Of a stretch of 35,368 nucleotides of DNA, positions 1 through 33,084 are shown piece after piece (positions within the stretch are counted from its first letter, which is position 1; the number at the start of each line of letters is the position of its first letter). The stretch is from a virus. Taxonomy: Duplodnaviria; Heunggongvirae; Uroviricota; Caudoviricetes. Below the pieces are notes generated by a model. That model saw only the letters and a program-made list of their open reading frames with translations, was not told where the DNA came from and did no database searches. The DNA is taken from the IMG/VR virus record IMGVR_UViG_2740892269_000014. One strand, given 5' to 3'. The translations under genes and the position numbers were made by a program.

Positions 1-573
1 ATGTTTTGCGAAGAAAAAGTAGCTCAAATGGCTGCATACCTACTTCTTAAGCGAGGTGGGCGCATGGCATATCTGAAATTGATGAAGCTGCTCTATCTGT
101 CTAACCGCAAGTCGATTTTGAAGCATGGCAGGATGATCGGCGAAGATAGCCTTTACTCTATGAAATTTGGTCCAGTCATGTCGAATACGCTGAACTTGAT
201 TCGTGGTAAGGCTGAAGGCATTGGTGACTACTGGTACAACTTGATAGAGACGAACGGGCATGATGTGTTGTTGCGTTCAGATCCGAGGGAAATGGATGCA
301 GACGAGGTCTTTGATGAGTTGAGCCGTGCAGATATCCGGATTTTAGATGAAATCTATTCTCTGTATGGGCATATGAACCGATTTGATCTCGCAAACATGA
401 CGCATTTAGAAAGCGTTTGTCCAGAGTGGCACAATCCTGGCAATTCTCGTAAGCCTATAGACCTGAAAGAAATGCTGATCAGTGAGGGTAAAAGCGAGGA
501 TGAGGCTAATCGTATAATTGGCAAAATGGAAGAATCTCAGAAACTTAAGGAATTTTCTTTGCAATTATCATGA
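1..573 (+). CDS. Panacea-domain (DUF4065) protein, putative PanA/SocA-like antitoxin; may be 5'-truncated by the window edge
   Basis: 190-aa ORF with the motif YLKLMKLLYLSNR...MKFGPV, matching the KLxKLLYY...GPV signature of Panacea/DUF4065 as I remember it; its stop overlaps the next ATG (ATGA at 570-573). Confidence 0.5.
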   Translation: MFCEEKVAQMAAYLLLKRGGRMAYLKLMKLLYLSNRKSILKHGRMIGEDSLYSMKFGPVMSNTLNLIRGKAEGIGDYWYNLIETNGHDVLLRSDPREMDADEVFDELSRADIRILDEIYSLYGHMNRFDLANMTHLESVCPEWHNPGNSRKPIDLKEMLISEGKSEDEANRIIGKMEESQKLKEFSLQLS

Positions 574-989
574 CGGATTATCAGCCATACAGGAAAGGAA
601 CTGTGCTTGCCCCAACTGGGCCATGCAATCATCTTCATGTGATTTGTAATGATCCTGTTTATTACCCCGTTAACGATTGTTATTGTGTTTTAGTTGTTAA
701 TATTTCTAGTATCAAGGATGGTGTCCCCCACGATCCGTCTTGCGTCTTGAATTCTGGTGATCATCGCTTTATCAAGCATCCAAGTTATGTTGTTTACGCT
801 GAAGCTATAATTTGGCGAGTGGATAACATGGTTAGAAAGCAGCGATCGGGTGAGATTTCTGTTCATGATGATATGCCAGAAGCTACATTCAATAGAATTC
901 TGGACGGTTTTGATATATCTGATGAAGTTACGCCAAAGAACCTTAAATTTAAAAATAAATATTGCGTATCATCTATTGATGATGAGTAA
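570..989 (+). CDS. hypothetical Cys/His-rich protein, candidate toxin partner of the upstream Panacea gene
   Basis: 139-aa ORF translationally coupled to the upstream gene by a 4-nt overlap; AT-rich; no family recognised. Confidence 0.4.
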   Translation: MTDYQPYRKGTVLAPTGPCNHLHVICNDPVYYPVNDCYCVLVVNISSIKDGVPHDPSCVLNSGDHRFIKHPSYVVYAEAIIWRVDNMVRKQRSGEISVHDDMPEATFNRILDGFDISDEVTPKNLKFKNKYCVSSIDDE

Positions 990-3612: not shown

Positions 3613-3812
3613 GAAAAAAAAGACTCCCGCGTATGACTGTTAAGAGCTGGCGCGAACGCTGCGTTAAGAACGGCAGCATCACAGCCGTCATCGATATAGA
3701 GCGCAATTTTTTTCTCCAGGCGTGCTTTGGCTTCCTGCAACTGCATACCCCGGCACGCACGTGGGATATACTCAGCAATTTGAGCGATAGATTTTTCGTT
3801 CTGTTTAAACAT
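3573..3812 (-). CDS. hypothetical small phage protein
   Basis: 79-aa ORF in the minus-strand operon with short overlaps to its neighbours. Confidence 0.35.
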   Translation of the reverse strand: MFKQNEKSIAQIAEYIPRACRGMQLQEAKARLEKKIALYIDDGCDAAVLNAAFAPALNSHTRESFFSCIAAQIRKGGNQ

Positions 3813-4008
3813 GCTTCACCTCGATCGGCTTGATGGTATCGATCAGCAGTCGGCGGCGAGTATTTTCTGCAAAGTGGCGGCGTCCGGTTTCTTTGTGGTA
3901 AAACTCGTTTTTTCCGACGACCCACATCCGCTTTGTCTGGTGCAGTTTTTTTACCTGCGGACCGTCTCGGGTGATAACAATTCCTGTATGAGTTTTTATC
4001 ACGCTCAT
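3805..4008 (-). CDS. hypothetical small phage protein
   Basis: 67-aa ORF, 4-nt overlap with the upstream gene. Confidence 0.35.
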   Translation of the reverse strand: MSVIKTHTGIVITRDGPQVKKLHQTKRMWVVGKNEFYHKETGRRHFAENTRRRLLIDTIKPIEVKHV

Positions 4009-4367
4009 TTCTTATTCTCCGGTGCTTTTGGCATTACTGCCCAGTGAGTGATATTGACGTTTTCAAGGTCCCCGACCTGAAATGTCCACTGCCATTCTCC
4101 GGTTTCTTTTTGTCCCCAGGTGTACCAGAGGGAACGCCAGCCAATCAGCCAGCCTTCTCCGTTAGCATCAAATAACAGAACACTTTCATTTGCTGGCGGC
4201 AGTTCAGCTGACACTGGTATTATTTTGTTTTCCAGTGCCGCACATTTAGCTTCAAGCGCGTCGAATTTACGTACCAGGTACTCGGCATTTGTTTCGTTCA
4301 CTTTCAGATCTCGCGGTACACATTTTCCGCGAAGAAACCCTTCCATTTCGAAAACATTCATGCGCAT
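4005..4367 (-). CDS. DUF551 phage protein
   Basis: 120-aa ORF; C-terminal GWLIGWRSLWYTWG...ITHWAVMPKAPE is DUF551-like. Confidence 0.5.
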   Translation of the reverse strand: MRMNVFEMEGFLRGKCVPRDLKVNETNAEYLVRKFDALEAKCAALENKIIPVSAELPPANESVLLFDANGEGWLIGWRSLWYTWGQKETGEWQWTFQVGDLENVNITHWAVMPKAPENKK

Positions 4368-4894
4368 TTGCGTAACTCCGATAACTCGTTAAAACGTTCC
4401 ATAAACATCCCGTAGGCATGGCCCGGTGCCAGTGGAATCACGTTGAACATCTCTGTTGCCGGGATGCCTTCCAGTACAGGCCAGAAAGAGCCATCATCAA
4501 GCCCGAGATCGCGGCGTTCGGTTGCCAGCATGATGAGATCGGCATATTTCACAGGTGTGCTCATAACCGGGGGTAACCCGTATTTCTCACGGATTACGGC
4601 ATCTATTTTTTCTTCCATCCGTTTATAGTCAGGAAGAAGGCGTTTCAGTGGAGCGGGGATGTCCTGGCAATATGCTTCTGTTGCATCATGCATTAACGCT
4701 TCAAAAGCAAATTCCTGCGGTACCAGCTGGCTGCAAAGCACCGCATGCTGGGCGACACTGTAGAAGTGTGAAAGATGTCCTGCAAAGCGACAGATATTTG
4801 AAAGGGAAACCGCGATATCGTTAATAACGATGTCATCTTTATTTATCTTGTCATAATAAAAATGCTTCCCGGAAAAAGTTTTAATAAATGACAT
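4358..4894 (-). CDS. HD-domain phosphohydrolase (YfdR/YfbR-like 5'-deoxynucleotidase family)
   Basis: H...HD...D metal-binding motif (SVAQHAVLC...LMHDATEAY...D); start taken at MSFIKTF. Confidence 0.65.
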   Translation of the reverse strand: MSFIKTFSGKHFYYDKINKDDIVINDIAVSLSNICRFAGHLSHFYSVAQHAVLCSQLVPQEFAFEALMHDATEAYCQDIPAPLKRLLPDYKRMEEKIDAVIREKYGLPPVMSTPVKYADLIMLATERRDLGLDDGSFWPVLEGIPATEMFNVIPLAPGHAYGMFMERFNELSELRKCA

Positions 4895-5021
4895 TTTGTT
4901 CTCCACGTATATGCGCTGCACCGCGCTGAATTCTGGTAAAAGGAAGCCCTCACCATCCGGTGATTATTGAGTTAATTACGTTTCCATAAATGCCCCCGCA
5001 GGGGCATTTGCAGTAATGAAA

Positions 5022-5846
5022 TCAGGCGGTGAAAGTACCAATAAAGGTTTCTACTTTGCTGTCTTTGAATTTCTCAACAAGCAGATCACGAAATTCGTTA
5101 GCCATTTCTTCCTGCACCGCTTCCAGCTGAATAATGCGCAGAACCAGTACAGGACGATCGCCAGTGATAATGCTGAGGCGTAATTTAAATGGACGTTCTT
5201 CCAGACCTTCAAACGGAACGCATTTAAATTCAAATGCCACTGGCATAATATCTTTGGTCTTCGCTTCGACAGACTCCATCAGGGAGCGTTTGCCGCTGAA
5301 GTCATTATCTTCAAAATCAGCGGTCTGGTTTGCTTCAATCGTGATTTTACGGACAGCCGCAGCCGCTTTTGTTGCCTGAATAGCGTCACCATTAGCATCA
5401 AAGCCTACAAGGTAGTCGGCCCAGTCTTCAATCCATTCTGCCAGTGACTTCTGGGAGTTACGCTCGCCGTTAACAGACAACAGAGCAGAGAACGGTGCTG
5501 TCTTTTTCAGTTTGAGAGTGGCGGTGTTATCTGCGTGACCTGGTTCATCAATAGTACCCAGGTTAAGCACACTGACGGCACGCATATTATCAGCATCGAT
5601 AAAGCAGCGGGTGCCTTCATCTGCAAGATCTTTAGAATAACGGGTAAAGTCATCGATGCTGGCAGTGGAAAGCGCACCACGGAAACGGAAGCGATTTAAA
5701 TTAAATTTTTCCAGATCATGAATGCGGAAGTTCTCAGGCAATGCCACAGCATCGGCACCAATCTTACTGATAATTTCATTAACACCCTGAGCAGAAATAA
5801 GGGCATGGATTTGATTAATTGCGGTTGCGTCTAAGTTCTGAGACAT
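5022..5846 (-). CDS. YfdQ-like (DUF2303-type) protein of unknown function
   Basis: 274-aa ORF directly upstream of the HD phosphohydrolase, the same arrangement and size as the yfdQ-yfdR pair of E. coli CPS-53; assignment is from memory. Confidence 0.45.
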
Positions 5847-5911
5847 AATAAGTCCTCACTATATTAAGATATTCAGTGATGAGATAAATAATCAGTTAAT
5901 TAAGAACGATA

Positions 5912-6274
5912 TTAATGACCTGCTGCGCGGAGTTTTCCGTCAGGCTCACCGGCAAGAGTCAGTAATTGTCCCTGGTCTTCCTGCAGAATAGTCAGGCGAC
6001 CACCGCGATTGACATACATCGGCGTTTCGGTGGTGTCTTCTTCGGAAATTTTCCCGCGGTTAGTCGGGCGAACATATGAGAGTTTGTGTTTGATTTTCAC
6101 ACGGTTCTCATCAAACGGTTCGATTTCCAGGTTGAGCGAGACCTTACCTTTGGTTTTCGTGTTCATCACACCGGAAGCGACTTCACTGAGAACTGCGCCG
6201 ATTTTGGTTTCAAATACGCCGCCGTCCAGCTCCCCGATAAATGCCTGCACATCAGTACTGCGTTCGCTAGCCAT
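5912..6274 (-). CDS. hypothetical early protein (first gene of the leftward operon)
   Basis: Start at ATG 6272-6274 (MASERSTDVQ...) with GAGGAG RBS 6 nt upstream; 120 aa. Confidence 0.5.
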   Translation of the reverse strand: MASERSTDVQAFIGELDGGVFETKIGAVLSEVASGVMNTKTKGKVSLNLEIEPFDENRVKIKHKLSYVRPTNRGKISEEDTTETPMYVNRGGRLTILQEDQGQLLTLAGEPDGKLRAAGH

Positions 6275-6880
6275 TTGCTGCTCCTCATCATATCGACCCT
6301 GCAAGGTCGGTTGGTTTCTCCACAAAACAGAGAAGAACACCTGCGGTGCAGCCGCCCGGATGGATTGGGTTATGAGCCCGTCGTCCGGTGATGCTCTTCT
6401 CTGTTTTGTAAAAAGAGCGGTACCAGCCGGAAGCAAGTGTACAAACTGGTACCGCCAAAGCAGTGGCTGTTGTGGTGGGGTTGTCACTCAGGCGTATGGT
6501 CAACCTGACAATCCGGTGTCCTCAACGGGGAAAGAGTAACCCCGCCATACTTACCGCCGCGCCATTTCGCGGATTACCACAACGCTGAGAGCACTTAGCC
6601 AGTTACGGCACCACACTTTGTCGCGGTTCCATAAATGCCATCATCGTTGCACCCTGGTCTCTTCCCAGGCGTCAAACCGAATCGCCACGCTGGTTAGGCG
6701 TCTTATCAGCATCCTCATTGACTTGCACATTCCGGCTACCTGGTTTGTTTGCCCGAGCAAGGAGTGGATTGTCCCCTTTAACGTCCCCAGACCGCTAACG
6801 ACGCATGTGCCATACGCCGTGTTACAACCAAATTTTGTCAGGACCTTGTTTGTTGGTCTGGAAAGAAAGATAAAATGAAA

Positions 6881-6918
6881 TTGCGTAACGTGCAAGTATT
6901 TTATTGCGAGACATGCAA
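6881..6918. promoter_or_regulatory. candidate left operator pair with overlapping pL-like promoter
   Basis: Two 15-mers, TTGCGTAACGTGCAA (6881-6895) and TTGCGAGACATGCAA (6904-6918), share the TTGCG-N5-xGCAA pattern with the 15-mer in the cI-cro intergenic region; minus-strand -35 TTGCAC and -10 TATCTT lie around 6867-6895. Confidence 0.35.
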
Positions 6919-6931
6919 TAGCGTGAGTAAT

Positions 6932-6952
6932 GAAAAGCCACCTTCTGGTGGC
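6932..6952 (-). terminator. intrinsic terminator downstream of the repressor gene
   Basis: gccacc-ttct-ggtggc hairpin followed on the minus strand by TTTTC. Confidence 0.5.
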
Positions 6953-6974
6953 TAATTGATGTTGAGGTAGGGGG

Positions 6975-7667
6975 TTAATTGTGTCGCTTAAGGGTTTGTG
7001 ACTGACTGATTAAGACCTTTCCAAAGACCATAAACCGGTGTTCGTTTTCGCTGGTAATTCCCCATTCGCGGTAAATCTGATTATCAGAAATTACCAGCAG
7101 TTTATCAGGTATCATTTGCAGTCGTTTGACGTAAATTTTATCATCAAAACCAAATACATATATACCATCCCCATCAAACTGATTGATACTGATATCAACG
7201 AAGATGAGATCTCCTGGCTCAATGGTTGGACACATACTGTCCCCACGAACGTTGATAACTTTAATGTGATTTGCTGGTCGTCCACCAAACATCGATACAG
7301 CATTATCAGTTCTGTATTCAATGGCATGAATCACATCAATGACATCACCGCCCTGGATAAGGCCATTTCCCGCACTGGCACTGACATCCAGCATTTCAAT
7401 ACGGAATACATCCTTCACCTGCGCAACATCCTCACTAATACTGTTTTTACATACAGTATTACTTTTGAGGTCTGAGGTAAAGAGATCAGCAATATCAACA
7501 CCTAAGCTCCTGGCAATATTACTCAGGGCTTGTTCAGTGAATTGTTTCTGCTTACCTGTTTCGAGGCGCGAGATATTCGCCGCATCCACTCCTATTGCTT
7601 CAGCGAGATCGGCGATTTTCATGTTCTTCGCCTGGCGAAGTTGTCTGACTCGATTTCCTATGTTCAT
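6975..7667 (-). CDS. CI-like prophage repressor (HTH-XRE plus S24 LexA-like peptidase domain)
   Basis: N-terminal HTH (RVRQLRQAKNMKIADLAEAIGVDAANISRLE) and C-terminal S24 motifs (GDSMCPTI...KRLQ); divergent from the cro-like gene. Confidence 0.8.
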   Translation of the reverse strand: MNIGNRVRQLRQAKNMKIADLAEAIGVDAANISRLETGKQKQFTEQALSNIARSLGVDIADLFTSDLKSNTVCKNSISEDVAQVKDVFRIEMLDVSASAGNGLIQGGDVIDVIHAIEYRTDNAVSMFGGRPANHIKVINVRGDSMCPTIEPGDLIFVDISINQFDGDGIYVFGFDDKIYVKRLQMIPDKLLVISDNQIYREWGITSENEHRFMVFGKVLISQSQTLKRHN

Positions 7668-7764
7668 GCGTTTATTACATTTCTTTATTGCGCGTTAAGC
7701 AAATCAACTTGCGCAAAATATTTGCGTGAAATAATATGCTCATCACGCAATATGTGGAGGTTAT
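7668..7764. promoter_or_regulatory. immunity-region operator/promoter (oR, pR, pRM-like)
   Basis: Repeated TTGCG/CGCAA half-sites: TTGCGCGTTAAGCAA 7688-7702, palindrome TTGCGCAA 7709-7716, TTGCGTGA 7722-7729 and TCACGCAA 7743-7750. Candidate pR is -35 TTGCGC (7709-7714), 17-nt spacer, -10 TAATAT (7732-7737); GGAGG RBS at 7756-7760. Confidence 0.5.
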
Positions 7765-8025
7765 ATGCAATCACCATTACGGAATGTGCGTAAGGCGCAC
7801 GGATTTACTTTGCAGCATGTTGCTGCGGGCGTTCAGGTCAATCCAGCGACGCTGAGTCGTATTGAAAGACTGGAACAAATTCCATCTATCGATCTTGCAG
7901 AACGTCTGGCCAATTTTTTTAAGGGTGAAATCAGCGAAATGCAGATTCTTTATCCGGCACGTTTTCAATCTAGCCAAAACCAGAATGGGTTTAAACCACA
8001 GGAACAGGAGGTAAGCCGTGGGTAA
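7765..8025 (+). CDS. Cro-like HTH regulator
   Basis: 86-aa ORF with an HTH-XRE motif (FTLQHVAAGVQVNPATLSRIER), first gene of the rightward operon. Confidence 0.65.
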   Translation: MQSPLRNVRKAHGFTLQHVAAGVQVNPATLSRIERLEQIPSIDLAERLANFFKGEISEMQILYPARFQSSQNQNGFKPQEQEVSRG

Positions 8026-8569
8026 GCATCATTGGAAAGTGGAAAAACAACCCGAGTGGTACGTGAAAGCTGTCAGAAAAACTATCGCGGCATTGCCTGG
8101 GGGTTACGCTGAAGCTGCTGACTGGCTGGATGTAACAGAGAACGCTTTATTCAACCGCCTTCGTGCAGATGGCGATCAGATTTTCCCGCTGGGATGGGCA
8201 ATGGTTTTACAGCGTGCTGGTGGCACTCACTTCATTGCTGACGCTGTGGCGCAGTCTGCAAATGGCGTCTTTGTGTCTCTTCCTGACGTCGAGGATGTGG
8301 ACAACGCCGATATCAACCAACGCCTGCTGGAAGTCATTGAACAGATCGGCAGTTATTCAAAACAGATTCGTTCAGCAATTGAAGACGGTGTAGTGGAACC
8401 GCATGAGAAGACAGCAATTAATGATGAATTGTATCTGTCAATTTCGAAGCTCCAGGAGCATGCGGCACTGGTCTACAAAATTTTCTGCGCTCCAGAAAAG
8501 AGTGACGCCCGCGAGTGTGCAGCTCCGGGCGTCGTGGCGTTTTGTGTCTGTGGAGAAACTAACGCATGA
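8018..8569 (+). CDS. CII-like / YdaT-family regulatory protein (putative)
   Basis: 183-aa ORF immediately after the cro-like gene with an 8-nt overlap; position and size fit CII functional analogues; identity is from memory. Confidence 0.4.
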   Translation: MGKHHWKVEKQPEWYVKAVRKTIAALPGGYAEAADWLDVTENALFNRLRADGDQIFPLGWAMVLQRAGGTHFIADAVAQSANGVFVSLPDVEDVDNADINQRLLEVIEQIGSYSKQIRSAIEDGVVEPHEKTAINDELYLSISKLQEHAALVYKIFCAPEKSDARECAAPGVVAFCVCGETNA

Positions 8570-8714
8570 ACAGTTTAACGGCAAATAACCGTTTGTCGCA
8601 ACAGCTGGTGGTCAGTGTCGCTGCACACCTGTTGTTACGGCATGAATGCAGATTACCAAATCACCTGGCTGTAAGTAACCACAGAGAACTTTACCTGACT
8701 GTGGGGGGCGAGTT

Positions 8715-8894
8715 GTGCAGGAACTTAACCGCTGGTTTCGTGACGGAAGAGGACTTTATGTTCATGTTATTCGTTGGGAGCCAGAAACACAGCGCGTTAT
8801 CTATCTTCGCAAAGACTACCCGCATGAGTGCTTTAGTCCTTTGTGGAAATTCAGGCGTGATTTTGTTGAGTGTGAAGGACCACCAGCACATTGA
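8715..8894 (+). CDS. possible small protein (59 aa, GTG start)
   Basis: Frame-0 ORF reading VQELNRWFRDGRGLYVHVIRWEPETQRVIYLRKDYPHECF...; G-rich stretch upstream; below the ORF-track cutoff; uncertain. Confidence 0.25.
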   Translation: MQELNRWFRDGRGLYVHVIRWEPETQRVIYLRKDYPHECFSPLWKFRRDFVECEGPPAH

Positions 8895-9168
8895 TTCTGC
8901 CATTCCGGGACGTTACACTGTTCAGGCACCTTATAAAGCGGGTGCCGGGATTGGCGTCCTGGAATTGCATACGGCGACAATTGGCGCGTTAGCGTCTTTT
9001 TTGTTGCTACAACTCAGCTATACCCAAATTATGGTGGGCTGGGTGGGGGCACCGAAAGGTGCGCCGGTTTCCGTATGCGCCGGTTACGCCAACCCTGCTC
9101 AGTTCACCACCAGCGAAATTGGCGTTTCCGGTGGTGGAAGTTATCCATTGCATACGGAGGCTGCCATC

Positions 9169-9714
9169 ATGGCTACGATCCCTGCCTTAGTTCAACCTGA
9201 ACTTTGCATTATTGCAGACAAAGTTGTTACTTCTTCTCTGGCTGTTGCTAGTTATTTCGGCAAACAACACAAAAACGTCATTCAAAAAATTGCGTCTCTT
9301 GAATGCTCTGCCGAATTTACTGAGCTGAATTTCCAGCTCAGTGAGTACATCGACGCATCAGGCCGCAAACTACCTTGCTATCAAATAACCCGCGACGGCT
9401 TTGCGTTTCTTGCTATGGGTTTCACGGGTAAACGTGCTGCCCAGTTCAAAGAGGCATACATCAATGCCTTTAACCAGATGGAGAAACAGCTTTCAAAGCC
9501 CGCTGTACCGAGCGACGTTGCACATAACGCCAGCGTTCTCTGTTCCTACATTTCATCAATTCATCAGGTCTGGCTGCAGCAGCTTTATCCTATGTTGGCA
9601 AAAGCCGAATCTCCGCTGGCTGTTAGCTTATATGACTATATTAATGATGCTTCGGCGCTGGCCTGCCTCATAAATTTGTCGCTGAACCCTTCAGAGGTAA
9701 GGGGGCGCAAATGA
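9169..9714 (+). CDS. Rha-family phage regulatory protein
   Basis: Start at MATIPALVQ with GGAGG RBS (9156-9160); Rha-like motif VVTSSLAVASYFGKQHKNVIQKI. The upstream part of ORF 8566..9714 is judged non-coding. Confidence 0.6.
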   Translation: MATIPALVQPELCIIADKVVTSSLAVASYFGKQHKNVIQKIASLECSAEFTELNFQLSEYIDASGRKLPCYQITRDGFAFLAMGFTGKRAAQFKEAYINAFNQMEKQLSKPAVPSDVAHNASVLCSYISSIHQVWLQQLYPMLAKAESPLAVSLYDYINDASALACLINLSLNPSEVRGRK

Positions 9715-9935
9715 TCCGGAATATTTTCAAACGTTTTACCAATCAGACTTTCCGTTGTCCTCGTCCGGGTCAGTGGTACACCACGCCTGCAGGGCATGTT
9801 CTACGTGTTAGCCTGGTTGACCGTGAATGTCAGAAGGTGATTTGTGAACCGCTGGGCCGTAATTACCGCGTCAGTATGCCGCTTATAGCCTTTCGCTCCG
9901 GAAAAAACATGAAGCATCTCGGAGGTGCAGCATGA
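9711..9935 (+). CDS. hypothetical small protein
   Basis: 74-aa ORF with ATGA overlaps at both ends. Confidence 0.4.
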   Translation: MIRNIFKRFTNQTFRCPRPGQWYTTPAGHVLRVSLVDRECQKVICEPLGRNYRVSMPLIAFRSGKNMKHLGGAA

Positions 9936-10750
9936 GTATGGAGCTGATGGTTAAAGCGATGAAAATTCGAGTGGGTAATCCATTGCGAAAACTGGTTCTG
10001 ATCAAGCTGGCTGATAATGCCAGCGATCAGGGTGAGTGCTGGCCCAGCTACCAGCATATTGCTGACCAGTGCGAGATTAGCAAACGTTCTGTGATGAATC
10101 ATATTGCGGCCCTCTGTGAGTCCGGGCTGGTAAAAAAAGTCACCCGGAAAGGTGAAAAAGGTAACTCAAGTAATATCTATCTTCTTCATCTTGATGGTGC
10201 AGGAGATTCACTAGGGGGTAGTGCAAATAATTCACTATCTGGTGCAGCAAATTCACCAGGTAGTGCAGGAGTTGCACCAGGGGGTAGTGCAGGAGATTCA
10301 CCCAGAACCAGTCACTCTTTTGAACCAGTCAAAGAACCAGTCAATGAACCAATAGCTGTTGGTGCATCAGTTGATGAGTCCGTGCGAGTTCGTTCAAACC
10401 GACCGGAATACTCTCCGGAGTTTGAGCAGGCATGGCTGGCATATCCCAAACGTGCTGGTGGCAATTCAAAATCTGCAGCCTTCAAAGCCTGGAAAGCCCG
10501 TTTGAATGAGGGAGTAAACCCCGAAACCATGCTGGAAGGTGTGAAACGCTACGCGGGCTGGGTATCTGCGATGGGTAACAGCGGCACACAATTTGTGAAA
10601 CAGGCTGTCACGTTCTTTGGTCCGGATCGTCATTTCGAAGAATCCTGGGAAGTTCCTGCGGTATCTGCAGCCAGACGTGAGGACCCGTACTTCAAAGCCA
10701 GTTACGACAACGTGGACTACAGCCAGATCCCGGCAGGATTCAGGGGGTGA
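9932..10750 (+). CDS. replication initiation protein (N-terminal winged HTH, C-terminal DnaT-like region) with internal origin repeats
   Basis: N-terminal motif LIKLADNASDQGECWPSYQHIADQCEISKRSVMNHIAAL; a low-complexity G/S/A linker is encoded by the iteron array; C-terminal motif AWLAYPKRAGGNSKSAAFKAWKARL. Confidence 0.55.
   Translation: MSMELMVKAMKIRVGNPLRKLVLIKLADNASDQGECWPSYQHIADQCEISKRSVMNHIAALCESGLVKKVTRKGEKGNSSNIYLLHLDGAGDSLGGSANNSLSGAANSPGSAGVAPGGSAGDSPRTSHSFEPVKEPVNEPIAVGASVDESVRVRSNRPEYSPEFEQAWLAYPKRAGGNSKSAAFKAWKARLNEGVNPETMLEGVKRYAGWVSAMGNSGTQFVKQAVTFFGPDRHFEESWEVPAVSAARREDPYFKASYDNVDYSQIPAGFRG
10196..10352 (+). repeat. candidate replication origin: five iterons plus three GAACCAGTCA repeats
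   Basis: Five about 19-bp direct repeats, GGT(A)GTGCAGGAGATTCAC-like, begin at 10196, 10217, 10241, 10259, 10283; GAACCAGTCA at 10305, 10322, 10334. Confidence 0.5.
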
Positions 10751-10752
10751 TC

Positions 10753-11241
10753 ATGAGTCTTTTGAATGAAGTTCAGAAATTCATTGAAGCCCATCCGGGG
10801 TGTACTTCCGGAGACATTGCGGATGCTTTTGCAGGTTACTCACGGCAGCGCGTTCTGCAGTCAGCAAGCAAGTTACGTCAGAGTGGGCGTGTGGCTCACC
10901 GTTGTGAAGGAGATACACGCAGACATTTCCCACGCCTGACTGAGAGAGCGCAGGAGCCGGAACCACAACCAGTTCGTGAAACCAAACCTGTGCGCAATTT
11001 CTATGTCGGCACTAACGATCCCCGGGTGATTTTGTGCCTGACCCGCCAGGCTGAAGAGCTGGAGTCCAGGGGGTTATACCGTCGTGCTGCAACGGTGTGG
11101 ATGGCGGCATTCCGAGAAAGCCACTCCCAGCCAGAACGAAACAATTTTCTGGCACGTCGTGAGCGGTGCTTACGGAAAAGCAGCAAGCGCGCTGCATCGG
11201 GTGAAGAGTGGTATCTGTCAGGGAATTACGTGGGGGCTTAA
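10753..11241 (+). CDS. PerC-like transcriptional regulator (putative)
   Basis: 163-aa ORF; C-terminal LESRGLYRRAATVWMAAF resembles the PerC-family motif; ATGA-type coupling upstream. Confidence 0.4.
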   Translation: MSLLNEVQKFIEAHPGCTSGDIADAFAGYSRQRVLQSASKLRQSGRVAHRCEGDTRRHFPRLTERAQEPEPQPVRETKPVRNFYVGTNDPRVILCLTRQAEELESRGLYRRAATVWMAAFRESHSQPERNNFLARRERCLRKSSKRAASGEEWYLSGNYVGA

Positions 11242-11894
11242 TGAGTAATAAATATTGCCGGGCGCTGGTGGAACTGCGGAACAAACCAGCCCATGAACTG
11301 AAGGAAGTGGGCGATCAGTGGCGCACGCCGGACAACATTTTCTGGGGAATTAACACCCTGTTTGGCCCGTTTGTTCTGGATCTGTTCACCGACGGTGATA
11401 ACGCCAAATGTACCGCGTATTACACGGCGGAAGACAACGCGCTGGCGCATGACTGGTCAGAACGTCTTGCGGAGCTTAAAGGTGCTGCCTTTGGTAATCC
11501 CCCATACAGCCGCGCCAGTCAGCATGAGGGGCAATACATCACCGGCATGCGTTACATCATGAAACATGCCAGTGCCATGCGTGATAAAGGCGGGCGCTAT
11601 GTTTTCCTGATCAAAGCTGCCACCAGCGAAGTGTGGTGGCCGGAAGATGCAGATCATATTGCTTTTATTCGCGGGCGTATTGGTTTTGAACTGCCTGCCT
11701 GGTTTATCCCGAAAGACGAGAAGCAGGTGCCGACAGGCGCTTTCTTCGCTGGTGCTATTGCTGTTTTCGACAAGACCTGGAAGGGACCGGCAATCAGCTA
11801 CATCGGGCGCGATGAACTTGAGGCATGTGGTGAGGCGTTTCTGGCGCAGGTTCGCCAGCAGGCGGAAAAACTGGTCAGGGAGATGGCGGCATGA
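11241..11894 (+). CDS. phage Dam-type DNA N6-adenine methyltransferase
   Basis: Catalytic NPPY motif (AAFGNPPYS); TAATG overlap with the upstream gene. Confidence 0.7.
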   Translation: MSNKYCRALVELRNKPAHELKEVGDQWRTPDNIFWGINTLFGPFVLDLFTDGDNAKCTAYYTAEDNALAHDWSERLAELKGAAFGNPPYSRASQHEGQYITGMRYIMKHASAMRDKGGRYVFLIKAATSEVWWPEDADHIAFIRGRIGFELPAWFIPKDEKQVPTGAFFAGAIAVFDKTWKGPAISYIGRDELEACGEAFLAQVRQQAEKLVREMAA

Positions 11895-14896: not shown

Positions 14897-15343
14897 TTAA
14901 GGTTTTAATTCATCAAGACGTTGTTGGATAGTGTTTTTGCTTGCGTTGTCTGTTATAGCCATTTGTTGTACTTGCCCCATTGCCATTTGAGTTTCCATCC
15001 ACATATCGGCCCACACTTTTGTATCGTTATTAACTTGAGCGATAGTAAATCTGACTTTTGATACCGGGGTTGTTGAATAGGCATTGCCGATTAACATTTG
15101 TCCAAAAACAGCAGACCCGCCTTCCAGTTCTTTACCACATATAACACTGCTGTTATCCGCGTTGTAAATTATCAACCCTCTACTATTGCAGTAATTCACA
15201 AGGGCATCTTTGACTTTATCTTTTGTCGTATTTTGATAAACCCCCTCAGGTTTTCCTGATTGAGTTTTCTTTATCAATGGTACGGAAGAAGTACAACCTG
15301 AAATGATAGTTGCGCTAAGTAATAGTACAGTCATTTTATTCAT
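14897..15343 (-). CDS. lipoprotein (moron), unknown function
   Basis: 148-aa ORF with a signal peptide and lipobox (LLLSATIISGC); AT-rich; oriented antisense to the flanking phage operons. Confidence 0.6.
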   Translation of the reverse strand: MNKMTVLLLSATIISGCTSSVPLIKKTQSGKPEGVYQNTTKDKVKDALVNYCNSRGLIIYNADNSSVICGKELEGGSAVFGQMLIGNAYSTTPVSKVRFTIAQVNNDTKVWADMWMETQMAMGQVQQMAITDNASKNTIQQRLDELKP

Positions 15344-15408
15344 GTTTCTTATCCATTGTTAAGGGCATACCTACACAATTATTTTTATTGGAGATGAATA
15401 ATCAACCG

Positions 15409-15492
15409 TTTACAATCGTAAAAAATCAAATATGCTGTTAAGAGTGGTTACTTCGCCACACAACTTAAACCCGCCGCTGAGCGGTTTTTTTG
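15409..15492 (+). promoter_or_regulatory. candidate late promoter with a short terminated leader (pR'/tR'-like)
   Basis: -35 TTTACA (15409-15414), 16-nt spacer, -10 TATGCT (15431-15436); weak hairpin plus T7 tract at 15468-15491. Confidence 0.3.
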
Positions 15493-15613
15493 TACCTGTA
15501 AACTTGGTGCAGTACAGTAAACACGCTGGTGGTCGTGAATACTGACTTTTTATCTTGCTGGCTTTTTAGACAAGAGTTATTGGTATGTCATGTTAACCAG
15601 AAGGGAAAAAGAC

Positions 15614-15696
15614 ATGCTAAAACAGCAAGATATGACAGAAACCGCCGCCGCAGTCCTTCATTTCTTACCTGCTGACAAGTGGGTAACGCCACGCAT
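15614..15696 (+). CDS. hypothetical late protein, 5' fragment truncated by an N run
   Basis: ATG at 15614 with AAGGG RBS; the ORF (MLKQQDMTETAAAVLHFLPADKWVTPR) runs into the N block. Confidence 0.3.
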
Positions 15697-15963
15697 NNNN
15701 NNNNNNNNNNNNNNNNNNNNNNNNNNNNNNNNNNNNNNNNNNNNNNNNNNNNNNNNNNNNNNNNNNNNNNNNNNNNNNNNNNNNNNNNNNNNNNNNNNNN
15801 NNNNNNNNNNNNNNNNNNNNNNNNNNNNNNNNNNNNNNNNNNNNNNNNNNNNNNNNNNNNNNNNNNNNNNNNNNNNNNNNNNNNNNNNNNNNNNNNNNNN
15901 NNNNNNNNNNNNNNNNNNNNNNNNNNNNNNNNNNNNNNNNNNNNNNNNNNNNNNNNNNNNNNN
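15697..15963. other. N run (assembly gap or masked sequence), 267 nt
   Basis: Contiguous n characters. Confidence 1.
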
Positions 15964-15989
15964 CCTACCAGAGTTACGCTTACTGATCC

Positions 15990-17042
15990 ATGAAAAATAC
16001 TGTAAAAATAAACAGTGTTGATTTAATCAACGCTGATTGCCTGCATTTTATTCAGTCCCTGCCTGATGATTCCATTGACCTGATTGTTACCGATCCGCCT
16101 TACTTCAAGGTGAAACCCAACGGTTGGGACAATCAGTGGAAAGGGGACGAAGATTACCTTAAGTGGCTGGACCACTGTCTGGCCCAGTTCTGGCGGGTGT
16201 TAAAACCTGCCGGAAGCCTTTACCTGTTCTGTGGGCATCGTCTGGCATCTGATATTGAGATCATGATGCGTGAACGTTTCAACGTGCTTAACCATATCAT
16301 CTGGGCGAAGCCGTCCGGACGTTGGAATGGGTGTAATAAAGAAAGTCTGCGCGCATATTTTCCTGCCACAGAGCGCGTTCTGTTTGCTGAACATTACCAG
16401 GGGCCATATCGCGGCAAAAGTGACGGCTATGCGGCAAAAGAAAGGGAACTCAAACAGCACATAATGGCACCGCTGATATCGTATTTCAGGGATGCTCGTG
16501 CCGAACTGGGTATAACGGCAAAACAAATTGCCGAAGCCACAGGTAAGAAAAATATGGTTTCCCACTGGTTTGGTGCCAGTCAGTGGCAGTTGCCGAATGA
16601 GGCTGACTATCGGAAGTTACAGGCACTGTTTTCCCGTATAGCGGCAGAGAAGTTTCAGGAACAACAACTGGAACAACCACACCACCAGCTGGTGGCATCT
16701 TATGATTCACTGAATCGCAAATATTCTGAATTGCTGGATGAGTTTAAATCTCTCCGGCGCTATTTCTCCGTATCAGTCTCCGTGCCTTATACCGATGTCT
16801 GGATGCATAAACCCGTTCAGTTCTACCCGGGTAAACATCCGTGTGAGAAACCTGCGGATATGCTCCGGCAAATAATCAATGCCAGTAGTCGACCTGGTGA
16901 TCTGGTTGCTGATTTTTTTATGGGATCCGGTTCCACAATAAAAGCAGCAATGGCGCTGGGGCGTCGGGCCTTAGGTGTTGAGCTTGAGTCAGAGCGGTTT
17001 AACCAGACAGTGAAAGAGATAAACGAGCTGGTGGGGAAATAA
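15990..17042 (+). CDS. orphan DNA methyltransferase (N6-adenine/N4-cytosine class, beta architecture)
   Basis: N-terminal DPPY catalytic motif (IVTDPPYF) and C-terminal AdoMet-binding motif (FMGSGST); no adjacent restriction endonuclease. Confidence 0.7.
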   Translation: MKNTVKINSVDLINADCLHFIQSLPDDSIDLIVTDPPYFKVKPNGWDNQWKGDEDYLKWLDHCLAQFWRVLKPAGSLYLFCGHRLASDIEIMMRERFNVLNHIIWAKPSGRWNGCNKESLRAYFPATERVLFAEHYQGPYRGKSDGYAAKERELKQHIMAPLISYFRDARAELGITAKQIAEATGKKNMVSHWFGASQWQLPNEADYRKLQALFSRIAAEKFQEQQLEQPHHQLVASYDSLNRKYSELLDEFKSLRRYFSVSVSVPYTDVWMHKPVQFYPGKHPCEKPADMLRQIINASSRPGDLVADFFMGSGSTIKAAMALGRRALGVELESERFNQTVKEINELVGK

Positions 17043-17046
17043 TCTG

Positions 17047-17073
17047 GTGGCCACGTAGGTGGCCTTTTTATTT
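17047..17073 (+). terminator. intrinsic terminator between the methyltransferase and the holin
   Basis: ggccac-gtag-gtggcc hairpin followed by TTTTTATTT; duplicated at 18003-18029. Confidence 0.5.
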
Positions 17074-17108
17074 CCATTACACAGCACCCGCATCTGCGAG
17101 GTGGGGTT

Positions 17109-17324
17109 ATGAAATCCATGGATAAGTTAACAACGGGTGTCGCCTATGGCACCTCAGCAGGTAGTGCCGGGTACTGGTTTTTACAGTTGCTCGATAAAGT
17201 CACGCCCTCACAGTGGGCGGCAATAGGTGTGCTGGGTAGTCTGGTATTTGGCTTGCTGACGTATCTGACAAACCTTTATTTCAAGATTAAAGAAGATAAG
17301 CGTAAGGCTGCGAGAGGTGAATAA
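17109..17324 (+). CDS. class II holin, phage 21 S-type pinholin with dual-start motif (copy 1)
   Basis: 71 aa, MKSMDKL... with Met1 and Met4 starts; closely matches the phage 21 S holin as recalled; ATGA overlap with the endolysin. Confidence 0.8.
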
Positions 17325-17461
17325 TGTCGCCATCATTACGCAAGGCTGTTGCTGCTGCTATTGGTGGTGGGGCTGTTGCCATAGCGTCTGTGCTCATCAC
17401 TGGTCCGAGTGGTGACGATGGCCTGGAAGGTGTCAGCTACATACCATACAAAGATATCGTT
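17324..17461 (+). CDS. SAR endolysin, 5' fragment (copy 1, truncated by N run)
   Basis: Identical to the first 138 nt of the endolysin gene at 18280. Confidence 0.6.
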
Positions 17462-17727
17462 NNNNNNNNNNNNNNNNNNNNNNNNNNNNNNNNNNNNNNN
17501 NNNNNNNNNNNNNNNNNNNNNNNNNNNNNNNNNNNNNNNNNNNNNNNNNNNNNNNNNNNNNNNNNNNNNNNNNNNNNNNNNNNNNNNNNNNNNNNNNNNN
17601 NNNNNNNNNNNNNNNNNNNNNNNNNNNNNNNNNNNNNNNNNNNNNNNNNNNNNNNNNNNNNNNNNNNNNNNNNNNNNNNNNNNNNNNNNNNNNNNNNNNN
17701 NNNNNNNNNNNNNNNNNNNNNNNNNNN
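17462..17727. other. N run (assembly gap), 266 nt
   Basis: Contiguous n characters flanked by duplicated sequence. Confidence 1.
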
Positions 17728-18417
17728 ATCAGTCTCCGTGCCTTATACCGATGTCTGGATGCATAAACCCGTTCAGTTCTACCCGGGTAAACATCCGTGT
17801 GAGAAACCTGCGGATATGCTCCGGCAAATAATCAATGCCAGTAGTCGACCTGGTGATCTGGTTGCTGATTTTTTTATGGGATCCGGTTCCACAATAAAAG
17901 CAGCAATGGCGCTGGGGCGTCGGGCCTTAGGTGTTGAGCTTGAGTCAGAGCGGTTTAACCAGACAGTGAAAGAGATAAACGAGCTGGTGGGGAAATAATC
18001 TGGTGGCCACGTAGGTGGCCTTTTTATTTCCATTACACAGCACCCGCATCTGCGAGGTGGGGTTATGAAATCCATGGATAAGTTAACAACGGGTGTCGCC
18101 TATGGCACCTCAGCAGGTAGTGCCGGGTACTGGTTTTTACAGTTGCTCGATAAAGTCACGCCCTCACAGTGGGCGGCAATAGGTGTGCTGGGTAGTCTGG
18201 TATTTGGCTTGCTGACGTATCTGACAAACCTTTATTTCAAGATTAAAGAAGATAAGCGTAAGGCTGCGAGAGGTGAATAATGTCGCCATCATTACGCAAG
18301 GCTGTTGCTGCTGCTATTGGTGGTGGGGCTGTTGCCATAGCGTCTGTGCTCATCACTGGTCCGAGTGGTGACGATGGCCTGGAAGGTGTCAGCTACATAC
18401 CATACAAAGATATCGTT
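17728..18417 (+). repeat. exact 690-bp duplicate of 16772-17461 (methyltransferase 3' end, terminator, holin, endolysin 5' end)
   Basis: Feature starts are offset by exactly 956 bp (17109 vs 18065; 17324 vs 18280), and the bases just before the gap match those at 18408-18417. Confidence 0.9.
18065..18280 (+). CDS. class II holin, phage 21 S-type pinholin (copy 2)
   Basis: Same sequence as 17109-17324. Confidence 0.8.
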
Positions 18418-22933: not shown

Positions 22934-24408
22934 TGGCAATTCTTGATGATGTGATTGGCGTTTTTTCACCAGGATGGAAAGCGGCAAGGCTGCGTTCCCG
23001 TGCGGTGATCCAGGCTTATGAGGCCGTAAAAACGACGCGGACACACAAAGCCCGACGGGAGAACCGAACTGCCGACCAGTTAAGCCAGTACGGGGCCGTG
23101 TCGTTACGTGAGCAGGCCCGTTACCTTGATAACAACCACGATCTGGTCATTGGTGTATTTGACAAGCTGGAAGAACGGGTGGTGGGGAAAAACGGGATTA
23201 TTGTCGAGCCACATCCGGTATTACGCAATGGGGCCATTGCCCGTGATCTGGCAGCGGAGATACGTACCCGATGGAGTGAATGGTCTGTCAGTCCGGAGGT
23301 CACCGGGCAGTTTACCCGTCCGATGCTGGAACGTCTGATGCTGCGTACCTGGCTGCGCGATGGTGAGGTGTTTGCCCAGATGGTTTCCGGGCGCATAAAC
23401 AGCCTGACGCCTTCTGCCGGTGTTCATTTCTGGCTGGAGGCGCTCGAGCCGGACTTTATTCCCATGACCAGTGATGAGAGTAACAGGCTGAATCAGGGCG
23501 TGTTTGTTGATGACTGGGGGCGTCCCGAAAAATATCTGGTGTATAAAAGTCGTCCTGTATCCGGACGGCAGATGGAAACCAAAGAAGTGGATGCAGAGCG
23601 AATGCTGCATCTTAAATTTGTTCGCCGTCTGCACCAGATGCGCGGGACGTCTTTATTGTCCGGTGTGCTGATCCGCCTCAGCGCCCTGAAAGAGTATGAA
23701 GATTCTGAGCTGACTGCAGCAAGGGTCGCCGCTGCTCTGGGGATGTACATCCGCAAAGGCGACGGACAGAGCTATGAAACGGATGGTAATTACAGCAAGG
23801 AGAATGAACGCGAGCTTACCATTCAGCCAGGCATTATTTACGACGATCTGAAACCCGGCGAAGAAATCGGAATGGTGAAGTCGGATCGCCCAAATCCTAA
23901 CCTTGAAACTTTTCGTAATGCTCAGTTGCGTGCCGTGGCGGCGGGCAGTCGTCTGAGTTTTTCCAGTACAGCGCGCAACTATAACGGCACTTACAGCGCC
24001 CAGCGTCAGGAGCTGGTTGAATCCACTGATGGCTACCTGATCCTGCAGGACTGGTTTATTGGTGCCGTCACCCGCCCGATGTATCGTGCCTGGCTGAAAC
24101 AGGCTGTGGCATCCGGTGTTATCAGGCTACCCCGCGATCTTGACCGTTCTTCACTGTATACCGCGGTGTATTCCGGACCGGTGATGCCGTGGATTGATCC
24201 TGTTAAGGAGGCTGAGGCCTGGAAAATCCAGATTCGTGGTGGAGCGGCGACAGAATCAGACTGGGTACGTGCAGGTGGTCGTAATCCGGATGATGTCAAA
24301 CGTCGGCGCAAGGCCGAAATTGATGAAAACCGCAAGCTGGACCTGGTATTTGATACCGATCCGGCCAGTGATAAAGGAGGCAGCAGTGCCGCAACGAAAC
24401 GACAGTAG
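22933..24408 (+). CDS. portal protein (lambda gpB-like)
   Basis: Start MAILDDVIGVF overlapping the W stop (TGATG); about 490 aa; position after the terminase and W-like gene. Confidence 0.75.
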   Translation: MAILDDVIGVFSPGWKAARLRSRAVIQAYEAVKTTRTHKARRENRTADQLSQYGAVSLREQARYLDNNHDLVIGVFDKLEERVVGKNGIIVEPHPVLRNGAIARDLAAEIRTRWSEWSVSPEVTGQFTRPMLERLMLRTWLRDGEVFAQMVSGRINSLTPSAGVHFWLEALEPDFIPMTSDESNRLNQGVFVDDWGRPEKYLVYKSRPVSGRQMETKEVDAERMLHLKFVRRLHQMRGTSLLSGVLIRLSALKEYEDSELTAARVAAALGMYIRKGDGQSYETDGNYSKENERELTIQPGIIYDDLKPGEEIGMVKSDRPNPNLETFRNAQLRAVAAGSRLSFSSTARNYNGTYSAQRQELVESTDGYLILQDWFIGAVTRPMYRAWLKQAVASGVIRLPRDLDRSSLYTAVYSGPVMPWIDPVKEAEAWKIQIRGGAATESDWVRAGGRNPDDVKRRRKAEIDENRKLDLVFDTDPASDKGGSSAATKRQ

Positions 24409-32600: not shown

Positions 32601-32638
32601 CCCGTGATGGTGGTCGGTTAAGTGGAGCATATCGGTAA
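29582..32638 (+). CDS. H: tail tape measure protein (gpH-like)
   Basis: About 1019 aa, coiled-coil rich, GGAGGTG RBS; follows G/T. Confidence 0.8.
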   Translation: MDQIANLVIDLGIDAAEFKNEIPRIKNLLNGAASDAERSSARMQRFMERQTQAARQTMQAASSAATAASVHAQTVEKSAQAHERMAREVEQTRQRMEALSQKMREEQAQAMALAEAQDKAAAAFYRQIDSVKQASAGLQELQRIQQQIRQARNSGGIGQQDYLALISEVTAKTRVLTQAEEEATRQKVAFIRQLKEQATRQNLSSSELLRAKAAQLGVSSAAEVYIRKMEQAGKATHSLGLKSAAARQEIGVLIGELARGNLGALRGSGITLANRAGWIDTLMSPKGMMLGGVIGGIAASVYGLGKAWYDGQKEGEEFNRQLSLTGHYAGVTAGQLWTLSRAISGNGITQHAAAGALAQVVGSGAFRGNDIGMVARAAAQMERSVGQSVSDTINQFKRLKDDPVNAAKALDNELHFLTATQLEQIRVLGDQGRSSDAARIAMSALAEETGRRTADIDNNLNALGSTLKYLSDLWSRFWDAAMNIGREDSLDEQISALQEKVSRAKRLPWTASSSQVEYDQQRLNELQEKKRQKDLQDAKEQAERNYQEQQKRRNAENAALNRMNETEAARHQREIARINAMQYADQAVRDAAIQRENERYEKALASGKKKTREPRNDEATRLLLQYSQQQAQVEGQIAAARQSAGIATERMTEAHKQLLALQQRISDLDGKKLTADEKSVLARKDELIQALTLLDVKQQELQKQTALNELKKKTIQLTSQLAEEERAQRQQHDLDIATVGMGDQQRQRYQVQLSLRQKYQQQLEQLRRDSEQKGTYNTDDYRKAEQALTESLNRQLNENRRYWQQLEIAQGDWKNGVLRALQNVTEKADNTAGTVEQLFTSAFSSMSDWLATFCTTGKLNFKSFTSSVLSDMSRIMAQIALMKAVKGIASALPFDFVANADGGVYQSADLSRYSGTVVNRPTFFAFAKGAGVMGEAGPEAILPLRRGADGKLGVVADIGGSGMAMFAPQYNIEINNDGTNGQIGPAALKVVYDLGKKAAADFMQQQARDGGRLSGAYR

Positions 32639-33084
32639 TGGAGACGTTTCACTNNNNNNNNNNNNNNNNNNNNNNNNNNNNNNNNNNNNNNNNNNNNNNN
32701 NNNNNNNNNNNNNNNNNNNNNNNNNNNNNNNNNNNNNNNNNNNNNNNNNNNNNNNNNNNNNNNNNNNNNNNNNNNNNNNNNNNNNNNNNNNNNNNNNNNN
32801 NNNNNNNNNNNNNNNNNNNNNNNNNNNNNNNNNNNNNNNNNNNNNNNNNNNNNNNNNNNNNNNNNNNNNNNNNNNNNNNNNNNNNNNNNNNNNNNNNNNN
32901 NNNNNNNNNNCATTTACGACAAACCACCCTGATCGGTTTCCAGTCATAAGGTGGCGTCCGCGCATTTCAGTGGACGCCACCTTATGACTGGAAACCGATC
33001 AGGGTGGTTTGTCGTAAATGGTCGGCAAGCGTGGGGGCGCTGTGGGTAACCATAACGGCAGATTTTGAACAGGTCGTGGCATAG
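32639..33084 (+). CDS. M: minor tail protein M-like, interrupted by an N run and a palindromic artefact
   Basis: ATG immediately after the H stop (METF...); the 3' part (from 32959) reads RAFQWTPPYDWKPIRVVCRKWS...FEQVVA*, matching the lambda gpM C-terminus. Confidence 0.6.
32654..32910. other. N run (assembly gap), 257 nt
   Basis: Contiguous n characters. Confidence 1.
32911..33019. repeat. perfect 49-bp inverted repeat (palindrome) with 11-nt spacer next to the N run; probable fold-back artefact
   Basis: Arm 32911-32959 is the exact reverse complement of arm 32971-33019; the right arm is genuine M coding sequence, while the left arm puts a stop (TAA 32947-32949) in the M frame. Confidence 0.85.

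Follow-up and report, generated by a model that had tools for sequence, protein, structure and literature searches.

The yfdPQRS block in the probable early-left operon of a lambdoid Escherichia coli prophage and its possible link to host replication initiation

The 35,368-nt stretch of viral DNA analyzed here (IMG/VR record IMGVR_UViG_2740892269_000014, referred to as the window over its full length) carries orthologues of the yfdQ and yfdR genes of the Escherichia coli K-12 prophage CPS-53. A first-pass annotation, made from the sequence alone, had placed a YfdQ-like protein and an HD phosphohydrolase at 4358-5846, limits at which, on the minus strand, one open reading frame (ORF) ends (4358) and another begins (5846), and had likened the size and order of the pair to those of yfdQ-yfdR. 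The likeness was exact, as a 274-aa protein, a 127-nt gap and a 178-aa protein are arranged in the same way in K-12 CPS-53. When the proteins were compared directly with those of K-12, 271 of the 274 residues of YfdQ were identical in a gap-free alignment, and YfdR was identical at 177/178 positions, with a single substitution, E169D, near the C-terminus. Judged by this 99% amino-acid identity, the two genes are certainly orthologues of yfdQ and yfdR, which goes beyond the mere resemblance first proposed.

YfdQ matched the Pfam family DUF2303 (PF10065) over its full length with 308.9 bits (E 3.6e-92; cut-off 26.6 bits), where residues 7-272 aligned to profile positions 2-269 of 269, and was assigned to PHROG 210 (E 3e-120). 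YfdR was assigned to PHROG 318, named 'deoxyribonucleoside 5' monophosphate phosphatase' (E 2e-111). The E-values for both ORFs are far beyond chance. Using an alignment of 28 sequences with identity down to 31% and the window protein as the reference row, we defined E46, R54, R56, G97, D106, Q132, R166, R223, R237 and G270 as invariant in the YfdQ family, and all of them are present in the window protein. The yfdR ORF extends over 4358-4921 on the minus strand and could start at a GTG at 4921 (187 aa) or at an ATG at 4894 (178 aa). The ATG, with GGAG 8 nt upstream of it, is the better start, and the resulting length of 178 aa is also that of the K-12 and RefSeq annotations. RefSeq names yfdP, yfdQ and yfdR in prophages that are 100% identical, with yfdQ given as 'YfdQ family protein' and yfdR as '5'-deoxynucleotidase'.

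The natural unit is a four-gene block, yfdPQRS, and not a pair. YfdP belongs to PHROG 204 (E 7.8e-51) and, according to precomputed annotations, to the new Pfam family PF27127, while YfdS matched its K-12 counterpart at all aligned positions (117/117) and scored 22.2 bits against DUF551 with a cut-off of 22. The genes do not differ from yfdPQRS(T) of CPS-53 (KpLE1) in order, size or spacing, and all four proteins are 99% identical in amino-acid sequence. With CPS-53 taken from NC_000913.3, the DNA homology covers positions 4017-6292 of the window at 97.9% identity and stops at those limits, and a second CPS-53 segment (yfdO', yfdN, yfdM) matches window positions 10675-11507. Unlike CPS-53, the window is without yfdT, ypdJ and torI, since K-12 YfdT, YpdJ and TorI gave no match anywhere in it by tblastn, and the ORF next after yfdS (3805-4008) is unrelated to yfdT. 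The two prophages also differ in their state, in that the one in the window appears intact and has repressor, cro, replication, lysis and structural genes, whereas the CPS-53 block is a remnant without repressor.

The proposal that these genes belong to an early-left operon fits the anatomy of the window. They lie on the same strand as a cI-like S24 repressor and downstream of it, with a hairpin and two operator-like palindromes between (Table 1), and leftward transcription is predicted from this arrangement. This repressor marks the immunity region and sets the direction of the block as leftward. A related copy of the palindrome, TTGCGCGTTAAGCAA, occurs in the cI-cro intergenic region at 7688-7702, and the palindrome pattern showed no significant enrichment across the window. 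Between the operator-like repeats and yfdP there is a leader of about 600 nt (6275-6880, minus strand), a stretch conserved in 78 phage records, in which no convincing N-like antiterminator ORF was seen when the ORF list and the sequence were looked at. A boxA-like element, GCTCTTTTTACAA, is located in this leader at approximately 6406-6418. After the leader, yfdP, yfdQ, yfdR, yfdS, small ORFs, an Ea22-like gene, a DUF551 gene, a 3'-5' exonuclease gene and a PrtN-type excisionase gene follow on one strand, tightly packed or overlapping. This layout is like that of a lambdoid early-left operon with a candidate leftward promoter. Further down the leftward operon, the minus strand encodes a 3'-5' exonuclease of the DEDD type (Rv2179c-like, E 5e-75) at 1568-2194 and another DUF551 protein at 2140-2658.

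Table 1. Coordinates of the yfdPQRS genes and of features of the adjoining immunity region in the window
Feature	Position	Strand	Description
yfdS	4005-4367	-	120 aa, DUF551; begins 10 nt before the end of yfdR
yfdR	4358-4894	-	178 aa from ATG at 4894; HD-domain protein
Hairpin in the 127-nt yfdQ-yfdR spacer	4988-5009	-	9-bp G+C-rich stem, AAATGCCCC-TGCG-GGGGCATTT; no clear U-tract
yfdQ	5022-5846	-	274 aa, DUF2303; ATG start, ribosome-binding site GAGGA upstream
yfdP	5912-6274	-	120 aa, first gene of the block; 119/120 identical to K-12 YfdP
Two operator-like palindromes	6881-6918	-	TTGCACGTTACGCAA and TTGCATGTCTCGCAA; both exact copies here by pattern search
Candidate leftward early promoter (PL)	overlaps second palindrome	-	-35 TTGCAC, 17 nt, -10 TATCTT; from reading the sequence, no scan hit
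Terminator-like hairpin directly after the repressor stop	6936-6953	-	7-bp stem with 5 G-C pairs, then TTTTCATT
cI-like repressor	6975-7667	-	helix-turn-helix families and Pfam Peptidase_S24 (E 5.9e-19); PHROG 4, transcriptional repressor
Divergent cro-like helix-turn-helix ORF	7765-8025	+	

The first-pass annotation had noted that YfdR is reported to bind DnaA, and this is accurate, as purified K-12 YfdR binds domain I of DnaA (Noguchi & Katayama 2016, PMC4776307). In the same study, yfdQ-yfdR-yfdS-yfdT was a multicopy suppressor of hda-185, the minimal suppressing set consisted of yfdQ and yfdR together with yfdS or yfdT, and the genes in multicopy inhibited over-initiation as well as normal initiation at oriC (PMC4776307). 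YfdR alone among the cluster was pulled down by DnaA, with Phe46 in domain I of DnaA being important for binding, and the binding of DiaA and DnaB to DnaA was moderately inhibited by YfdR (PMC4776307). Extracts containing YfdQRST inhibited oriC unwinding and DnaB loading in vitro in the form I* assay (PMC4776307). The effect of over-expressed yfdQRST that the annotation also named is likewise documented, as the multicopy cluster inhibits oriC initiation (PMC4776307). In the window yfdT is missing, but the minimal set for replication inhibition (yfdQ and yfdR with yfdS or yfdT) is complete, with Q, R and S intact. At 99% identity to the K-12 protein, the window YfdR would be expected to bind DnaA domain I as well.

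The authors of that study speculated on a role in the growth of the ancestral phage and made a comparison with lambda P (PMC4776307). Like lambda P, which binds DnaB and DnaA domain III, YfdR is made early by a phage, makes contact with the initiator of the host and is able to inhibit oriC initiation. Unlike lambda P, YfdR is an unrelated protein whose DnaA surface is that around Phe46 of domain I, it is no helicase loader, and its effect in vivo needs YfdQ and YfdS or YfdT. The replication module of the window (9932-10750, plus strand) apparently comprises a single initiator-like gene (HTH_36 and DnaD_N), and no helicase loader is annotated in an identical prophage. A replication module without an annotated helicase loader has been described for phage LLS (PMC12315714). 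Such a single-gene module may have a bearing on the presence of a protein that binds DnaA in this phage.

Based on these data, we consider it moderately likely that the yfdPQRS module of this lambdoid, mEp460/SfV-like E. coli prophage transiently brakes host oriC initiation early in lytic growth, perhaps with an added effect on the pool of deoxynucleoside monophosphates (dNMPs). The block would be transcribed leftward from the repressor-controlled PL, so that induction or infection would be needed for its expression. After derepression, YfdR would occupy the surface of DnaA domain I that is used by DiaA and DnaB helicase (Phe46) and, with YfdQ and YfdS, would damp initiation at the host oriC. 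The HD active site of YfdR could in addition act on deoxynucleotides as a weak 5'-deoxynucleotidase, with a possible effect on the dNMP pool. To the phage, this temporary restraint of chromosome initiation in the host is the most likely use of the block. We infer for the window that the K-12 findings hold in this prophage, that the block is expressed from PL and that the phage benefits.

Several points weigh against this account. In the in vitro form I* assay, purified YfdR had no inhibitory effect by itself, and deletion of yfdQRST left both initiation and hydroxyurea resistance unchanged (PMC4776307). The replication phenotype is so far a phenotype of multicopy or over-expression. The promoter scan as a whole gave no enrichment over shuffles, and the promoter and operator assignments are pattern-based. 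We keep our confidence at a moderate level because the data come from over-expression, because the deletion is silent, and because yfdP-yfdQ pre-dates yfdR and exists without it, as described below.

To determine which genes accompany yfdQ, we collected 71 loci from one-genome-per-species contigs and nine distant contexts (Xanthomonas phage, Pseudomonas, Rhodanobacter and metagenomic phages) by exact-protein look-up, and searched stop-to-stop ORFs with a hidden Markov model of YfdP and with jackhmmer profiles of YfdQ, YfdR and YfdS. A scan of viral contigs yielded only E. coli copies with 99-100% identity, and these did not enter the counts. In 74/76 loci, a YfdP gene immediately preceded yfdQ, and the other two loci had truncated yfdQ copies; the arrangement recurred in 9/9 distant contexts, where the YfdP gene had precomputed PF27127. 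A YfdR-like HD gene, on the other hand, lay within 4 kb downstream of yfdQ in 53 of the 70 evaluable loci (adjacent in 48) and was missing from the other 17. No YfdR-like HD gene was detected by jackhmmer in the Hahella yfdQ locus, and none was present among the called genes of the nine distant contexts (precomputed Pfam for all, jackhmmer for five of them); it was likewise absent from eleven Enterobacterales loci. Overall, yfdR was found only in Enterobacterales loci and was absent from all non-Enterobacterales loci examined. YfdS-like genes were rare (5 loci). Over 79 loci from many species, yfdP, lying upstream, is the gene that invariably accompanies yfdQ, and yfdR is a frequent but optional addition; yfdP-yfdQ clearly pre-dates yfdR and exists without it. 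Since yfdR is absent from 17/70 loci and from all loci outside Enterobacterales, the ancestral job of yfdP-yfdQ is independent of YfdR and of any DnaA binding by way of YfdR, which also counts against the account given above.

In non-enteric phages, yfdP-yfdQ was often found within recombination modules. The order PDDEXK nuclease-YfdP-YfdQ-RecT is present in locus L160 (2720-5977), SSB (single-stranded DNA-binding protein)-YfdP-YfdQ in L162 (2687-4840), and YfdP-YfdQ followed by a protein of about 400-440 aa, ERF and YqaJ, with or without SSB, in L003 (9571-14706) and L161 (3646-8840), where the 400-440-aa protein is conserved with 48% identity between the two loci. Within 4 kb of the enterobacterial yfdQ loci, none of RecT, ERF, YqaJ and PDDEXK was found; lambda Red-type genes were not searched for. 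A DEDD-type 3'-5' exonuclease lay within 4 kb of yfdQ in 26/71 species loci.

Considering that yfdP is the invariant partner of yfdQ, that a hairpin splits yfdQ from yfdR and that yfdR and yfdS overlap, the block seems to consist of two sub-modules, yfdPQ and yfdRS. The hairpin folds with -18.2 kcal/mol (z -2.4 against shuffles) and is possibly a processing or attenuation element dividing yfdPQ from yfdRS. These observations allow another explanation, in which yfdP-yfdQ is an ancient, self-contained DNA-acting unit (for recombination, repair, a function at DNA ends or shielding from host nucleases), yfdR-yfdS was inserted later in enterobacteria, and the joint multicopy effect on DnaA arises as a by-product of over-expression and is not what was selected for. 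The constant yfdP-yfdQ pairing, in the distant contexts without an adjoining HD gene, the position of the pair inside recombination modules in the Xanthomonas phage and other non-enteric contexts, and the strong hairpin all speak for it. However, recombination genes are in any case part of early-left operons, and little can be concluded from their proximity; phages with a complete separate recombination module carry the cluster as well (PMC12315714), and yfdQ is genetically required for the DnaA-related suppression (PMC4776307). Weighing both sides, we regard this explanation as possible but doubtful. Equally tentative is a broader proposal in which yfdP-yfdQ, and not yfdQ-yfdR, is the conserved functional unit, that is, an obligate two-gene module of gammaproteobacterial temperate phages that acts as a new DNA-metabolism or host-takeover factor and to which the DnaA-binding YfdR was recruited only in Enterobacterales.

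The structural data on YfdQ also bear on a self-contained yfdP-yfdQ unit. The DUF2303 family is large, and its members are uniform, with one domain and a length of about 270 aa. An exhaustive profile search yielded 3809 clusters (50% identity) at E<=1e-3, and 1129 at E<=1e-30. Several arginines and a PGHAD motif are among the positions conserved in the family. In the sequence file of the Protein Data Bank (PDB), entry 9o7m, entitled 'YfdQ Protein' and comprising 36 chains, matched residues 16-273 of the window YfdQ (E 1.3e-44). This protein is a DUF2303 member like the window YfdQ, to which it is approximately 36-40% identical, and it is 99% identical to a protein of Xanthomonas phage MET23-P3. 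In MET23-P3, yfdQ also follows yfdP, but ERF, YqaJ and SSB genes come next and there is no HD gene. The 36 chains hint at a large oligomer or filament of YfdQ, which would suit a DNA-acting yfdP-yfdQ unit. A text search for '9O7M' and 'MET23-P3' found no publication on the entry, and E. coli YfdP, Xanthomonas YfdP and the 401-aa gene downstream of the Xanthomonas yfdQ had no match in the PDB. The AlphaFold models of YfdQ (pLDDT 76) and of YfdP (pLDDT 70; one helix and a three-stranded sheet) had no informative structural neighbour in the fold libraries searched, from which 9o7m is absent. YfdP, YfdQ, YfdR, YfdS and their neighbours did not match any PADLOC defence model.

Returning to YfdR and its proposed part in a brake on host initiation, we analyzed the HD domain. 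The metal ligands H50, H69-D70 and D119, forming an H...HD...D motif, were invariant in 54 homologues, and YfdR aligned to the solved HD protein Atu1052 (PDB 2gz4) with E 1e-13. Because of this invariance and this alignment, YfdR is very probably an active metal-dependent phosphohydrolase. The phage T5 protein Dmp and E. coli YfbR are 5'-deoxynucleotidases, and YfdR has in common with them and with HD phosphohydrolases the H...HD...D signature and the 5'-deoxynucleotidase annotation. YfdR nonetheless scored below the curated YfbR thresholds (24.2 vs 25.9 bits for PF12917 and 19.8 vs 122 bits for NF003009), with only residues 50-113 matched, and is therefore an HD relative and not a YfbR equivalog. 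YfdR has been characterized as an HD protein with weak nucleotide affinities, and its substrate affinity is reported to be much lower than that of YfbR (PMC4776307). In addition it binds DnaA, which is not reported for YfbR. The dNMP phosphatase activity of the K-12 protein is weak, according to Zimmerman et al. 2008 as cited in PMC4776307.

The first-pass annotation had suggested a module for manipulating either host replication or nucleotide pools, of which the former is supported by the data on the 99%-identical orthologues and the latter ranks lower. If YfdR were chiefly a 5'-deoxynucleotidase like T5 Dmp or YfbR, it would reshape the pools of dNMPs and deoxynucleoside triphosphates in early infection, and DnaA binding would be incidental. 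We find this improbable. The strictly conserved HD metal ligands, the PHROG and RefSeq labels, the weak matches to YfbR-like Pfam and NCBIfam models, and a dNMP kinase gene (PF21448) that lies next to or near yfdP-yfdQ instead in two distant phages would all agree with it, but the matches stay below the family thresholds given above. The rationale that applies to T5 is also lacking, as degradation of host DNA is not known from temperate lambdoid phages. Furthermore, deletion of yfdR left the yield of cytidine monophosphate unchanged in an engineered strain (PMC10870394).

The block is common. Its 2.5 kb were found in 3034/5426 complete E. coli genomes (56%), mostly at 95-99% identity, and were 100% identical in several avian E. 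coli strains, within a prophage adjoining zur. The block is also present in 49 phage records, among them mEp460, PhiR40_1, cdtI, Stx2c phages and Shigella phages, as well as in SfV-like phages; the window as a whole is closest to lambdoid phages of the PhiR40_1/mEp460 type. In mEp460, SfV, cdtI, Stx2c phages, ST64B and LLS, the same block occupies the same site between the immunity region and the ea22, exonuclease and excisionase genes, with 97-98% identity in mEp460, PhiR40_1 and Stx2c phages. The window does not differ materially from the early-left block of this group and is one more member of it. A 2025 paper described the yfbR(yfdR)/yfdQ/yfdP cluster as common in lambdoid early-left operons, with yfdQ and yfdP being without known function, and as neither restricted to nor universal in phages that lack a recombination module (PMC12315714). 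The genes are thus already named, annotated and published, and do not represent a new kind of system.

This prevalence raises the question of whether the genes serve the host as cargo for lysogenic conversion or stress tolerance (oxidative or alkylation stress, or hydroxyurea) and not the phage. In K-12, yfdQ and yfdS deletions were reported to be sensitive to methyl methanesulfonate and hydrogen peroxide, and multicopy yfdQRS/T raised hydroxyurea resistance (PMC4776307). Retention of the block in the majority of complete E. coli genomes, including in degraded prophages such as CPS-53, points in the same direction. However, in an intact prophage the genes lie behind a repressor-controlled leftward operator region and should not be expressed in the lysogen, and the abundance of this group of phages accounts for the high prevalence. 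A benefit to the host therefore seems quite improbable, more so than a principal role in nucleotide pools.

Other features of the window were noted alongside the block. A 382-aa ORF at 8566-9714 (plus strand) is a Rha family regulator in RefSeq, with the Pfam domains Phage_ASH (aa 117-212) and Phage_pRha (aa 222-307). Inside this ORF, Rfam models detected the isrK Hfq-binding RNA at 8926-9002 (61.2 bits) and the C4 antisense RNA at 9027-9114 (80.7 bits), both on the plus strand. The isrK/C4 arrangement looks like the P1/P7 immI-type control of an antirepressor by antisense RNA, set within a lambdoid immunity region, and the 5' part of the annotated ORF may be non-coding. The left end of the prophage encodes a protein with a SocA/Panacea antitoxin domain (1-573, plus strand; PF13274, E 1.8e-18), which is followed by an overlapping 139-aa ORF (570-989, plus strand) that matched no family; the pair (1-989) may be a moron of the PanA toxin-antitoxin type, and had no PADLOC match. 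Against a G+C fraction of about 0.50 for the prophage, low-G+C islands are located at 15001-16000 (0.29), 17001-18000 (0.36), 24001-25000 (0.40) and 32001-33000 (0.38), and are probably morons. An unassigned 148-aa ORF in one of them (14897-15343, minus strand) adjoins the Q antiterminator gene.

For the window itself, the finding is of little importance, as the genes are named, annotated and partly characterized and the block is present in more than half of the complete E. coli genomes. The residual interest is a general one and concerns the biochemical role of YfdP and YfdQ, two early proteins that occur very widely among phages. Competition with host initiation could matter more in this prophage because its replication module apparently comprises one gene, and an intact, inducible prophage with yfdPQRS would be a better system than the decayed CPS-53 of K-12 in which to study YfdR and DnaA in a live phage.

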